A DNA stretch of 64,000 nucleotides, from contig CAZPPS010000002.1 in assembly GCA_964588495.1 (NCBI GenBank), positions 1,108 to 65,107 on the forward strand, in the 5' to 3' direction. The stretch is from an uncultured bacterium. GTDB taxonomy: Bacteria > Chlamydiota > Chlamydiia > Chlamydiales > JAAKFR01. Shown here one piece after another: positions 26,332 through 36,953 of this stretch (its first letter is position 1; the number at the start of each line of letters is the position of its first letter). Both the position numbers and the translations under genes were made by a program. The notes under the pieces are model-generated. The model was not told the DNA's origin. It saw only the letters and a list, made by a program, of their open reading frames with translations, and ran no database searches.

Positions 26332-28010
26332 TCAATAGGTTAGGGGCTCAACTTGTGGCCATTGCTCTAGGAGGGAGAGAGCCTCTTGGAGGAGGGGGGC
26401 AGGAACTTTGGGATTGATGCAGAGGGCATTGAGGTTTTCTAGGGCTTCGGTAGATAGGTGGTCGGCAAAGCCTTCGTGGACCATTTTGGCAAGATAAAGA
26501 GTGGCCTGAAACTGATCTTCTGGGTCGGCAATTGGGCTACTACGTACTGCCTGGAGCATGCCGACGATTTCTGCGGCAGAATTTAAGCGGTTGTACAATT
26601 TTTTATATAAAACCAAAGCACGGTAGAGTTTCGCTTTAATAATCAGGTCTTTCGGGAAGATGCGGCAGCTGGGATGGCTGTCTAAGGTTTGATCCTCCTC
26701 CAGATCGATCACATCCCAAAGATGCAACAGAATGGTTTCTTCTCCGAGGAATTGGTGGTAGTAGGAAATGATGGCCAGGTAGAGTCTGGCAATGTGTTTT
26801 AAAACATTCGGACCGCCATTGAAACTAAAGTTCATCAATTGCAAGTGGATCTGATAAGGGTCGCCCTGGTTGTGATAGGCAACGAGTGTTGAAAAAGGGG
26901 AGCAAAGATATGGGCAGGCAACGGGGTCGAACATTGCGGAAAGTTAAGCCTTTCAGATAGGGTTTGGGCATCTATTTTTTCGAAGCCGCTTTTGAGATAG
27001 AGCATTATTTGATAAAAAGTGGCTTCGATTTGTTCCTGTTGATAGCGAGCATCCAAACGGACTTTTTCCAAAAGGGCAATCGCTAGGTCATCGCTAATCG
27101 CATCTGTGAGTCTAAACGCTCTACAGTAACCGATAAAAACGATCGCCTTTGCAAGCCTTTCAGGGGCGATGACTGGATCATCAAGGGCTTCAAGGAATAT
27201 CTGGAAGATCCTTTGGAATCTTTTTTCGGAGAGAGTATCTTTTAATGTGGCGAAGCGATCGATGAGGATTTCGACAATACGGGATTTGTGGTGTTTCTCG
27301 AATGCCTTGTCATTATAGGCGCCTTCAAAAAATGCCGTATTCAAGCTTTTTTCCTTTAATTCGAGATGAAAATAATGGGCTGCGACGAGTGCTCTCTTTC
27401 GACTTTCCTCTGAAATGCCTATAAGCTTAGCATACTGTGACGATTGCCAATCTTGATCAGTTCTATAATTTACAGCATGACGTGTACGGGTCATGATGGA
27501 ATAGACAAAATCGGTCACGTCTTTTTTGTAGTTAAAATAAGTTTTAAAGTTAATATGGCCAGTCGCTTGTGCTTGAACGACAAATTTCTCGCGGACGCTT
27601 AAATCCCCTTTGCGCAAAATCAGATCTAATTGCTGCTCATTTGAAAGCGTTATGCCTTCAAGCACTCTGATAATTTCTACCGCCCTTTTATTCGCTTTAT
27701 GGGCACAATAATGGAGGCAAAGAACCGATAGACAATTGACATCCCTGTCCGCTTCTCCCTTCAAAAGGGCTTCTTTATAAGAAAGAGCGTCGGTTTTCAG
27801 GATGCCCGCCTTTTCAAAAAGGACTCTATAGAAATCCCGATACCCTGTCAGGTGTTGGAAGGTTTTACAAGTGATCGCGAGCTTCTCACACTCATTGTAG
27901 CTCAAATAACGCATCACAAGTGGGGCAAGATCAGACATCCAAACGCAAGCGTTCACAAAAGTTGTCTCAGGGACTTGAACCGGAAAAGCAGAGAGGTGAT
28001 TGCAGATCAT
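26332..28010 (-). pseudogene. F-box-like paralogue family member, split into two overlapping ORFs (26835..28010 N-part, 26332..26934 C-part)
   Basis: The N-part carries the F-box-like segment (LVMRYLSYNECEKLAITCKTFQHL). The C-part carries family C-terminal motifs (ARLYLAIISYY, KAKLYRALVLY). The two frames differ and overlap by 100 nt. Confidence 0.55.
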
Positions 28011-29368
28011 AAAAGTTTTGCGACTGCAGCCTTAAGGAGTTCAGCCTCTCGTGGAGGTAATCTGTCTGCCAACTTTAAAAGAATGACATACTCAGAATCA
28101 AAAATGCTGATTTCTTCACATTGAAGGAGCAGCTGGGGAGTCACTGTTTGTCCAAGAGGCAAATGTTCCTTGATAACTAAATAATTTGTCGAGGCTGAAA
28201 GTTTTTCCTCTCGTGGTATAAATGCAAAGCTAATATGAATTTTTCCAAGCCACACAAGGATTTCATCTGATGTCATTTGCGTGGTATACACGCCGCTTAA
28301 ATGGTCCAAAATGATGTAAAGTTGAGCACGCAGAGCCTCAGCTGGAAAATTGTTTATGCTGTCGCAGACCTCTTTTAATAGCGCATATCTGTCAGAAGGG
28401 GTTGGTTTCTCAGATAAAGGCATGATTGCCAAGTAAAGCTTGGCTTTCATGACACTCTCACGGTCTGAAAGTGGATTTGTGACAACACCATTAAGTAATT
28501 CATATTTCGCGCTCGGAGAGAGGATGTCGATCGGATCTTCTTCATGCATTGACATCATTTGCATTTGGAAATAGGGGATGTTTTTTCGTTGGCAATCAGT
28601 ACTTCTCTTTAGAAGATCGGCATAACGCACAGAAAAGCGCAATTCTGCCGTCCGCCTTGGTAATGTCAAAGATGGGGACGTCCATTCTTGACAGGGCGCC
28701 ACAAGAGCTTCACGGTGCTTTTTATCGAGGAGTAAATTTTGAGACATGATGTTTTTGTCATGAATCGTCTGAAAAGCTTGCTTTGGATCGCGCAGGCCAT
28801 AGTAGGCAGCTTCCGCACAGGCTTTTTTGTAATTTTTATACTTTTCCTCGGCTTTATGCTGATCGATGTTTATAAAATCCGTAACTTCTTTCGATATCCG
28901 GTCGATAAAAGCTTGTGGGATTGCCTCAAATTTTTTAGGGAAATAGGAGTAACTGATGTAAATGTCCCCTTTGCGGAGCATCAGTTCTAATTGCTGCAGT
29001 TTCGAAAGCTCAAGTTTTTCAAGCTTTTGAATCAAAGCCACGATTTTTTGGATTGTGCTTGAAAACTGCAGAAAATCGCACAGGTGCTCACAAAGCGCTA
29101 GCAGAGCGACGGGATTACCCTCATCCCCTTTTTCCAACAAACAGTCTTTGTAAGAAATTCCCACAGGTTTTGCTAGCCCAAGCCGGAAAAAAAACTCTAG
29201 ATAATGGGCAGAGTTTTTAGAAGCCTCGCTAAAACTTTTACAAACTAAACCCATCTTTTCACATTCAAAGTGTGGAAGAAAGCGCATGATATTTAAAAGG
29301 ATATCGACGTTGTTTTGAAACACACATCCTGTGTGATTAGGGTATAATGTGGTATGATTGTGGATCAT
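28007..29368 (-). CDS. F-box-like domain protein, lineage-specific paralogue family
   Basis: The N-terminus ILLNIMRFLPHFECEKMGLVCKSFSEA fits the F-box pattern LPxE..x.I..L....l..l.lVCK.w. The family core motifs LELSKLQQLELMLRKGD and LLLDKKHREAL are present. There are ATGA overlaps at both ends. Confidence 0.75.
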   Translation of the reverse strand: MIHNHTTLYPNHTGCVFQNNVDILLNIMRFLPHFECEKMGLVCKSFSEASKNSAHYLEFFFRLGLAKPVGISYKDCLLEKGDEGNPVALLALCEHLCDFLQFSSTIQKIVALIQKLEKLELSKLQQLELMLRKGDIYISYSYFPKKFEAIPQAFIDRISKEVTDFINIDQHKAEEKYKNYKKACAEAAYYGLRDPKQAFQTIHDKNIMSQNLLLDKKHREALVAPCQEWTSPSLTLPRRTAELRFSVRYADLLKRSTDCQRKNIPYFQMQMMSMHEEDPIDILSPSAKYELLNGVVTNPLSDRESVMKAKLYLAIMPLSEKPTPSDRYALLKEVCDSINNFPAEALRAQLYIILDHLSGVYTTQMTSDEILVWLGKIHISFAFIPREEKLSASTNYLVIKEHLPLGQTVTPQLLLQCEEISIFDSEYVILLKLADRLPPREAELLKAAVAKLL

Positions 29369-35308: not shown

Positions 35309-36953
35309 AAGTTTTTTTCAATCTCCTCTTTTAGACGAAGGGCTTCAGTGATGTAGGCTTCCTTTAAAAGTTGACTCTCGCTCACCTCCTTGACCAAGGC
35401 ATATTGCTCTTTGGCAGAGAGTAGGAGAAGGGGGTATTTTTCATGCAGAATGACCATGTAGAGTTTGGCCATCAGGACATCTTTTGGATCGGCAAGGCTG
35501 CTTTCGCTGATTTCTTTCAAATAGGCATACCGCTGAGGAGGAGTAAATATGTCACTCCAAGTCCAATCTTCATACATGAGCACTAAATAAAGTCGTGCTT
35601 TTAACTGGATATCATAAGGAACTGTGTCAAGCTCAAGCTGTGATAGTTGCATTACCTTATGAAAATCGAGGAAGCGATCGAGCTCTTCAGGCACATCCCG
35701 GAGAAGGTCGTCGTGAATTGCACGATCAATGCGCCCTTCGTAATCCATGATTGCAAGATATAAAATAGAGATCTGTTTTAATCGATCACTAGCCGCAAAA
35801 CTACCGACATATAGAACATTTTCTAAATCTTTTATCAGTTCTTGAAATTGTTCTACTGTTTGTGAATCCAGGGATGTGTCATTGAACTGGTTGATCAATT
35901 TATACAGACGAATAAGTTCAAACAGCTGCCAGCTATCTATTGTTGGCAATGGGTTTTCTATATCAGTTAACCACTGTTTAAAAGCAAAATCATCAAATCC
36001 ATCAATTTGTCCCTTAAAGGCAATAACTCCGTGCAAGAATTTAGCCCAGCTCTGATCTAATAATGGAAGCCATTTGCAATTGTGGATAGAAGCCAGTAAA
36101 TTTATTAACCATTGATCATTAATTGCATGAGTGAATCTAAACGCACGGCACATGCCCAGTCTCAGGATGGATTGGATGCGGATGCCCATGGGAGTGTCAG
36201 GGTCATCCGAAAGTAATTTTAATGAGGTGACGGCCGTCTCTAGTTTTTTTTGTCAGATACATCCTGGCAAGCAAAATTGAATTGCAAATGCATGCGGTGT
36301 TTTTTATCGATGAATAAATTTTGAGTGAGGATAGCCATCTCACAAGGGGGGATATCTTTTTTCTCTAAAGCATTCAGATAGGAAATTTCTGCAAAAACTT
36401 TTCTATAATCACCATATTTTTGTTCCGCCTCAGCTCTTGTTATTTTTCTAAAATCAGATACCTCTTTAATAGTTTGTAATCCTGTTTCATTAGCATTGGC
36501 TGTTTGCCCTCTAAAAACATAACGAACGAAATCTACTTTACGGAGCATGAGCTCTAATTGCTGGTGTTTCGTAAGCTCAATTTTTTCAAGTCTTTGAATC
36601 CAGCTCCAGGCTTTTAGCATTTTATTTTTAGTAAACAAGAAGTCACAATACAGATCTAAACCAGCGAGAAGGGCATCTGGATTGTTTTGTCGGAATTGTT
36701 CAGAAAACATGTTGCAATAAGTTTTATAGATTGGGCCTGCGAAGCCCAATTTTCTAAACAAATGTTTATAAGTATGAGAGTGTCCGGAACACAAACAAAA
36801 ACGTTTACAGACCAAAGCCATTTTTTGGCATTCAATCAAGGGAAGAAAATCCATGATTCGAAGGACGATTTGAGCGCAAGAGGCCAAAATTGGACCTGCA
36901 GGATTTAAAGAAATAGTTGTAGATATAACATCAGTTTCTAATTTGCGAATCAT
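35305..36953 (-). pseudogene. F-box-like paralogue split by a frameshift at an A8 (plus-strand T8) homopolymer
   Basis: The N-part is 36240..36953 (IVLRIMDFLPLIECQKMALVCKRF). The C-part is 35305..36189, whose frame is open back to 36252. The two frames meet at T8, 36244-36251. Adding one A would read ...DKKKLETAVTSLKLLSDDPDTPMGIRIQ..., which is colinear with the paralogues. Confidence 0.65.

Follow-up and report, generated by a model that had tools for sequence, protein, structure and literature searches.

The stretch of DNA analysed here, 64,000 nucleotides from contig CAZPPS010000002.1 of an uncultured bacterium (assembly GCA_964588495.1, forward-strand positions 1,108 to 65,107; hereafter the window), carries a chlamydial family of F-box proteins that is lineage-specific and encoded in tandem. 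Six consecutive paralogues (G1 to G6) follow one another head-to-tail on the minus strand from position 36953 down to 26332, and a divergent seventh, G7 (39974-41320, minus strand), adjoins pnp. The order of predicted elements is a disordered leader of ~25 residues, an F-box homologue of ~45 residues, a family-specific core, a TPR/Sel1-like alpha-solenoid and a variable number of hairpin repeats. We assume, with moderate confidence in the account as a whole, that these proteins are secreted F-box adaptors which redirect host SCF (Skp1-Cul1-Rbx1) ubiquitin ligases and which arose by old tandem duplications in a hotspot between ftsH and pnp.

The arrangement of six minus-strand loci and a seventh, divergent one had been described in an earlier note on this DNA and was recovered in the open reading frame (ORF) listing of 24-44 kb and by three-frame translation. 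G1 (35305-36953) is split into two ORFs (36240-36953 and 35305-36189) and encodes 548 amino acids (aa) after repair of a frameshift. G2 (33686-35308, 540 aa), G3 (31542-33608, 688 aa), G4 (29365-31467, 700 aa) and G5 (28007-29368, 453 aa) are intact, whereas G6 (26332-28010) again consists of two ORFs (26835-28010 and 26332-26934) that yield ~559 aa after repair. Three unrelated ORFs separate this array from G7, which encodes 448 aa directly downstream of pnp. All seven genes are located on the minus strand, and no additional family member is present elsewhere within the window. ATGA overlaps, in which the start codon of one gene overlaps the stop codon of the preceding gene, are present at all three sites for which they had been claimed (35305-35308 for G1/G2, 29365-29368 for G4/G5 and 28007-28010 for G5/G6, minus strand), and the protein motifs quoted at the time were all found: MSIRKLE...IVLRIMDFLPHMECEKMALVCKRWHWV...VYQQLF in G4, LEKLELSKLQQLELMLRKGD in G5 and NLLIDKRHR in G2 and G4. 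Pairwise protein identity among G1-G5 amounts to 31-50%, and G7 scores 54 bits against a profile hidden Markov model (HMM) of G1-G6 that was made without G7; the sequence similarity among the paralogues thus lies far above chance and indicates common descent.

The N-termini had been proposed to be F-boxes of the eukaryotic type, and a search with the Pfam profiles F-box (PF00646) and F-box-like (PF12937) had been suggested as a check. Matches were obtained for six of the seven paralogues (G1-G5 and G7), always at residues ~22-70 and with E values between 8e-5 and 4e-3; the absence of any significant F-box match, named in the earlier note as part of a refuting outcome, was not observed. G2 and G3, with 22.7 and 22.3 bits, surpass the gathering score of PF00646 (20.5). 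The F-box-like segments, as delimited by the Pfam matches and by profile comparison with F-box proteins of the PDB, are located on the minus strand at 36753-36869 in G1 (residues 29-67), 35102-35221 in G2, 33396-33518 in G3, 31267-31389 in G4 (residues 27-67), 29204-29305 in G5 and 41129-41230 in G7 (residues 31-64, E 0.0029).

The homology is further supported by profile searches against all PDB sequences. An N-terminal profile of 23 sequences, comprising the seven window proteins and sixteen chlamydial relatives and seeded with no canonical F-box, returned 40 distinct matches, and all 40 were F-box proteins. FBXW8 (E 1.9e-8), Skp2 (5.3e-7) and Legionella AnkB (0.0098) were among them, as were FBXW7, beta-TrCP, FBXL3, FBXO3, TIR1 and KDM2A/B. 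A profile of the seven window sequences alone gave weaker F-box matches (FBXL17 0.017, FBXL3 0.08, Skp2 0.64); its top-ranked match was a designed repeat protein, which is an artefact, and the natural matches were F-box proteins. Weak F-box matches only (FBXL3, E 0.56) were also obtained with a profile that covered all 240 residues of the N-terminal module, compared with which the restriction to the F-box and the addition of relatives gave the stronger PDB matches. When a full-length family profile was searched against 1.84 billion representative proteins, the canonical F-box proteins P0022 (Pfam F-box, 68 bits) and P0031 were retrieved via N-terminal positions only, and in an ungapped alignment of G4 with the F-box of Skp2 15 of 41 residues are identical. 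On the basis of the Pfam matches and of a PDB-wide search that returned exclusively F-box proteins, we regard the homology of the N-termini to F-boxes as established at the level of sequence.

Several observations weigh against the assumption that these domains still serve as Skp1-binding F-boxes. The canonical Leu-Pro (of Leu-Pro-x-Glu), which is located at the start of helix 1 and contacts Skp1, is conserved in none of the seven paralogues; the residues at this position are SC in G1, TI in G2 and G3, SS in G4, NN in G5, WM in G6 and QV in G7. Because it is not conserved, profile positions 6-8 are the earliest that the Pfam alignments reach. Of the six Pfam matches, four (G1, G4, G5 and G7) fall short of the gathering score, and G6, for which no Pfam F-box match was found, is assigned to the family solely by its sequence homology to the paralogues. 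Foldseek recovered no F-box fold, neither from the full AlphaFold2 model of G2 nor from an N-terminal model: with the latter (125 residues, predicted local distance difference test score (pLDDT) 69) nothing significant was found in the PDB, and Fbs1 appeared at rank 6 with an E value of 7, a model confidence too low for this outcome to count as a negative result on the fold. AlphaFold2 predicts helices within the F-box of G2 at residues 28-38, 41-46/50 and 52-58, and the pLDDT of this region in the N-terminal model is only 65-70. Finally, two of the six array genes (G1 and G6) are frameshifted. Of the pattern L-P-x-E...VCK-W that had been read into the N-termini, the F-box core positions are conserved and the Leu-Pro is not. 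Residues of the LP, IP or FP type are retained in some distant relatives (P0014, P0012, P0019 and P0025).

The Leu-Pro motif is required for Skp1 binding by Legionella AnkB, and because it is missing here, an alternative without Skp1 keeps some weight: the paralogues could be secreted helical-repeat scaffolds in which a relic of the F-box no longer binds Skp1, and which sequester or bridge host proteins without ubiquitination or engage some other partner. The loss of Leu-Pro in all seven proteins, the mostly sub-threshold Pfam scores and the failure of Foldseek would be in agreement with such a degenerate domain, and the conserved family-specific core that follows directly after the F-box could then be the true functional module. 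However, the other F-box core positions (I/L-x-x-I-M/L-x-x-L...L-V/T-C-K-x-F/W) rank among the best-conserved parts of the family; their mean pairwise identity of 0.51 is matched only by the QQLELxLxKGDL block of the core, and the ratio of non-synonymous to synonymous substitution rates (dN/dS) of the F-box region is 0.3. This combination argues for selection acting on the F-box itself. Truncated or atypical F-boxes, for example the PRANC domain of poxviruses, can moreover still bind Skp1. We consider it unlikely that the F-box of this family is degenerate.

The core is predicted to be helical and is characterised by the family-specific motifs NPxALLA...C, LExLELSxxQQLELxLxKGDL and QNLLxDKxHR; along the family, the F-box and the QQLELxLxKGDL motif show the strongest conservation. 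An AlphaFold2 model of G2, for which the paralogues served as alignment (mean pLDDT 79.6, predicted template modelling score 0.76), predicts residues 1-25 to be disordered and the remainder to be wholly helical, forming a solenoid in which helices of 17 and 13 residues alternate with a period of ~43 residues. According to this model the solenoid is built from tandem helix-turn-helix hairpins of 34-44 residues, as in TPR/Sel1-like proteins. A whole-protein Foldseek comparison with the PDB found generic TPR, ARM and HEAT solenoids (Rap proteins, Ctr9, Scc4), none of them at E <= 0.001, and in a viral structure library the best matches were Klosneuvirinae proteins combining a RING/U-box with Sel1 repeats (E 3e-3 to 5e-2, not significant). 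At the level of sequence, no Pfam match to LRR, TPR, Sel1 or DUF294 was found in any paralogue, and an NCBIfam search gave no matches.

Towards the C-terminus the proteins contain a tandem unit, a helical hairpin of 39-43 residues with the consensus LKAKLYLALMHLEERTEILTDEEAYALLQEVSESEHADP and the pattern AKLYxxxM...(I/L)(T/S)xxEAxxLLxEV. The window genes have between one and five matches to the repeat profile, some of them incomplete, and relatives have up to eight. The repeat regions, located by the repeat profile and by the helix pattern of the AlphaFold2 model, extend on the minus strand over 29419-30135 in G4, 31848-32339 in G3 (four full-length tandem repeats and one partial match) and 33755-34000 in G2. 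The hairpin repeat has no Pfam match, and the repeat profile found no sequence match in the PDB (best E 0.07). The C-termini, which the earlier note had called helical and variable, are indeed both, and their variability can now be described more specifically as a varying copy number of this repeat.

F-box proteins link Skp1 to substrates in SCF ligases. Tandemly arrayed chlamydial families that combine an F-box with LRR or with TPR were described by Domman et al. 2014 (PMC4209131), and the representatives tested carry functional type III secretion signals. For these two reasons the paralogues of the window are probably, by analogy, secreted adaptors that steer host SCF ligases and select their targets through variable solenoids. 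The proteins would be exported into a eukaryotic host, presumably via the chlamydial type III system, the signal for which, expected in the first ~20 residues, would fall within the segment predicted to be disordered in the G2 model (residues 1-25). The F-box would then dock on host Skp1 in the SCF ligases, and the variable solenoid would bring in host proteins for ubiquitination, with targets that differ from paralogue to paralogue. As to its origin, the family would go back to old tandem duplications in the ftsH|pnp hotspot that were followed by birth and death of copies, two of the six array members being currently disrupted.

The age of the duplications can be estimated from synonymous divergence (dS), which is at least 1 among G1-G5, and from dN/dS, which ranges from 0.2 to 0.5 across all regions, selection can be judged; both values indicate old duplications and past purifying selection on the genes. 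The old duplications suspected in the earlier note are thus supported. The patchy DNA identity between copies that it had pointed out was likewise found, positions 28965-29013 and 31043-31091 being 94% identical over 49 nucleotides (nt) against a background of 48%. Gene conversion, which had been suggested as an explanation, is not demonstrated by this pattern, since the identity islands fall on the most conserved protein motifs in every pair. The islands between G4 and G5 reach up to 92% nucleotide and 87% synonymous identity, and these were selected as the highest out of several hundred windows; in view of this selection and of the coincidence with conserved motifs, the islands were rejected as evidence of gene conversion.

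The reading frame of G1 is interrupted inside a run of eight A (T8 on the plus strand, 36244-36251), and the addition of one A restores a continuous frame of 548 aa that aligns with the paralogues. In G6 the frame switches between about 26865 and 27059, as located by means of the outside relative P0009, whose alignment runs in frame 1 over gene nt 49-951 and in frame 3 over nt 1146-1607. Other A8/T8 runs of the window are situated inside intact ORFs, so there is no general signature of homopolymer errors, and the frameshifts of G1 and G6 could be genuine or could stem from isolated errors of assembly. For the A8/T8 site of G1, slipped-strand phase variation, recent pseudogenisation and assembly error are all candidates, and homopolymer frameshifts of this type might switch members of the family on and off.

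The two frameshifted genes would also fit the view that the array consists mostly of non-functional remnants, the result of genomic drift by duplication and subsequent decay with little current function. According to the argument of Domman et al. (PMC4209131), families of this kind are shaped by birth and death of a non-adaptive nature, and the G1-G5 type has no orthologues elsewhere. Against this view, four ORFs of 453-700 aa (G2-G5) have remained intact despite a dS of at least 1, dN/dS is 0.2-0.5 in all regions and the overlapping start and stop codons have been kept. The dN/dS of the frameshifted G1 versus G4 (0.43) equals that of the intact pair G2/G4 (0.42), which indicates that the break in G1 is recent or artefactual. 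An array made up mostly of remnants is, in our view, improbable.

The distribution of the family is narrow. In a word-indexed search that covered 5.8 billion proteins, all matches were paralogues from the same contig. An exhaustive HMMER search of the 1.84 billion representatives yielded 32 matches at E <= 0.001, of which nine are ORFs of the window, and no other protein of the G1-G5 type was present among these representatives. The distant relatives share at most 28% identity, and every named source is chlamydial. Closest among the outsiders are P0009, 28% identical to G6 over 568 aa, and two relatives of G7, P0010 and P0016 (24% to G7). The remaining relatives form a sparse superfamily with an F-box-like N-terminus, an 'NPxALLAK' linker and a repeat of ~40 residues; its sources include one Protochlamydia metagenome-assembled genome (MAG) and several Rhabdochlamydiaceae MAGs, and the Rhabdochlamydiaceae relatives are named 'F-box-like domain-containing protein' by NCBI. 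The family pattern was found neither in genome representatives nor in JGI metagenomes or IMG/VR viral contigs, although a single degenerate pattern of this kind would miss distant relatives. As the outsiders resemble G6 and G7 and nothing elsewhere resembles G1-G5, G6 and G7 appear to represent older lineages and G1-G5 an expansion that took place locally. The best matches of the PNPase of this contig are from uncultured Chlamydiales MAGs (up to 80% identity), followed by Parachlamydiaceae (65-70%), and judging from these matches the source organism is an environmental chlamydia.

The whole family is located in a variable island of 15.4 kb (25957-41400) between the convergent genes ftsH (23203-25956, plus strand) and pnp (41401-43503, minus strand). 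The GC content of the island is 38-42% compared with 44-48% in the flanks, where the housekeeping genes are a PP-loop/tilS-like gene, ftsH, pnp, rpsO, lptF/G and alr. Neither a tRNA nor an Rfam element was found at the island borders. In 32 relatives ftsH lies at most 10 kb from pnp, mostly as a convergent neighbour, and the gap of 0.1-8.4 kb contains differing cargo. None of the relatives examined has a member of the present family in this gap, close relatives included. Locus L003 (12193-13416) harbours a canonical F-box protein of 407 aa (PF12937, 56.5 bits) directly downstream of pnp, which matches G7 in position and orientation and has a non-helical C-terminus. The gap contains a protein of 1108 aa with DUF6119 and a UCH/USP deubiquitinase domain in L002 (12102-15428; PF00443, 6e-27), a classical tyrosine phosphatase in L019 (12725-13522; PF00102, 8e-45) and VirK in L001 (13555-13968). 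Because the gaps of relatives carry eukaryote-like genes, we interpret the ftsH|pnp junction as a hotspot for host-interaction genes. A more far-reaching proposal, namely that the core together with the 39-43-residue repeat is an undescribed chlamydia-specific substrate-recognition module on an atypical F-box and that ftsH|pnp is a conserved, clade-wide integration hotspot at which each lineage retains its own effectors directed at host ubiquitin or host signalling, is put forward tentatively as a possibility.

A function of the proteins as TPR-like adaptors inside the bacterium, to which the F-box similarity would be irrelevant, appears very improbable to us: the secretion step of our account is drawn by analogy, solenoids of the TPR/Sel1-like type are frequent in housekeeping complexes of bacteria and several bacterial proteins are among the Foldseek matches, but among bacteria F-box homologues occur almost exclusively in host-associated species, from which they are secreted (PMC4209131), the island is variable and the corresponding gap of relatives holds eukaryote-like genes, and the family, unlike housekeeping factors, is missing even from close relatives. 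Eukaryotic contamination was rejected as an explanation, as the genes are flanked by the bacterial ftsH and pnp and overlap in their stop and start codons.

The three further ORFs of the island have no Pfam match. The ORF at 37002-37946 (minus strand, 314 aa) has a hydrophobic N-terminal helix and motifs that appear kinase-like by eye (GKGxxxF...VIKF, DHDDNLANN, LDVG). It has no PDB sequence match and belongs to a conserved family of ~38 clusters at 27-50% identity, the few named sources of which are Chlamydiales or Parachlamydiales MAGs. The ORF at 38113-39588 (plus strand, 491 aa) has a lysine-rich C-terminus and neither a significant NCBIfam nor a PDB sequence match, and a third ORF at 39545-39880 (minus strand) encodes 111 aa; no homologue of these two was found near pnp in 80 relatives. 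In the closest relative, L001 (MFD10064.bin.2.108), ftsH seems truncated: its ORF has 364 aa (14207-15301), whereas tblastn spans query residues 197-891, which points to a frameshift or to faulty assembly of this MAG.

An AT-rich spacer with a promoter-like TTGATT-17-TATTAT precedes G1 (36954-37001, minus strand), and similar AT-rich spacers with promoter-like sites were located by the same consensus scan before G3 (33609-33685) and G4 (31468-31541), both on the minus strand. A terminator-like hairpin (26285-26302, minus strand; GCGGTGAC-TTGT-CACCGC followed by a T-run) is present directly after the stop codon of G6. The promoter-bearing spacers, the ATGA overlaps and the hairpin together suggest the transcription units G1-G2, G3 and G4-G5-G6 with translational coupling inside them, a proposal that is no more than suggestive because the overall number of promoter-like sites in the consensus scan is not above the shuffled expectation. 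The -10-like TATTAT ends 7-8 nt before the ATG of G1, G3 and G4 (36954-36961, 33609-33615 and 31468-31474) with no Shine-Dalgarno sequence, and G3 and G4 share 80% identity in their upstream regions; the three genes could have leaderless transcripts, or the feature could simply reflect AT-rich duplicated upstream sequence. Between ftsH and the end of G6 a direct repeat of 48 nt (26049-26096 and 26285-26332, 94% identical) with the palindrome GCGGTGAC..GTCACCGC was noticed, the second copy of which includes the terminator-like hairpin. It might be an element of the repetitive extragenic palindromic (REP) type or a border repeat of the island.

Expansions of F-box families in amoeba-associated Chlamydiae, to which the earlier note had referred, are indeed matched in architecture by the present family (F-box and helical repeats, tandem array). 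Domman et al. described NEX1a (F-box and LRR) and NEX2 (F-box, TPR and DUF294) of Neochlamydia and smaller F-box arrays of Protochlamydia (PMC4209131). These families likewise come from environmental chlamydiae, combine an N-terminal F-box with C-terminal interaction repeats in tandem arrays and show birth-and-death evolution with lineage-specific copy numbers. In contrast to NEX1a and NEX2, the window family has no match to the LRR, TPR or DUF294 profiles and therefore stands outside NEX1/NEX2 proper, a distinction drawn by Pfam domain content; its C-terminal repeat of 39-43 residues is unannotated, and the array lacks Leu-Pro, is small (seven genes), is situated in the ftsH|pnp hotspot and has no close homologues outside its genome. 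AnkB of Legionella pneumophila (PDB 5k35), a bacterial effector with an F-box, recruits host SCF, and its F-box was found by the chlamydial profile (E 0.0098); however, AnkB has ankyrin repeats and Leu-Pro, is exported by Dot/Icm (type IV) and is encoded by a single gene instead of an array. With eukaryotic F-box proteins such as Skp2, FBXW7, FBXW8, beta-TrCP and FBXL3 the family shares the homologous N-terminal domain of ~45 residues and the order of an F-box followed by substrate-recognising repeats, whereas its putative substrate domain is a TPR/Sel1-like solenoid and not WD40 or LRR, Leu-Pro is absent and the genes form a bacterial, operon-like array with overlapping stop and start codons. 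The RING/U-box and Sel1 proteins of Klosneuvirinae similarly fuse an E3-related module to a Sel1-like solenoid in parasites of amoebae, but these structural matches lack significance, have a RING/U-box in place of the F-box as E3 module and show no sequence homology.

Several intracellular bacteria seize host protein degradation by means of F-box effectors, and environmental chlamydiae are, to our knowledge, the largest bacterial reservoir of such effectors. The expansion of chlamydial F-box effectors as a general phenomenon is already published and the gain of the present study in this respect is incremental; its newest elements are the ftsH|pnp hotspot and the unannotated repeat. A family that combines this repeat with an F-box devoid of Leu-Pro could be used to test which F-box features are truly needed for the capture of Skp1. 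Effector turnover in this clade concentrates at ftsH|pnp, and the junction thus provides a simple anchor for finding host-interaction genes in chlamydial MAGs.

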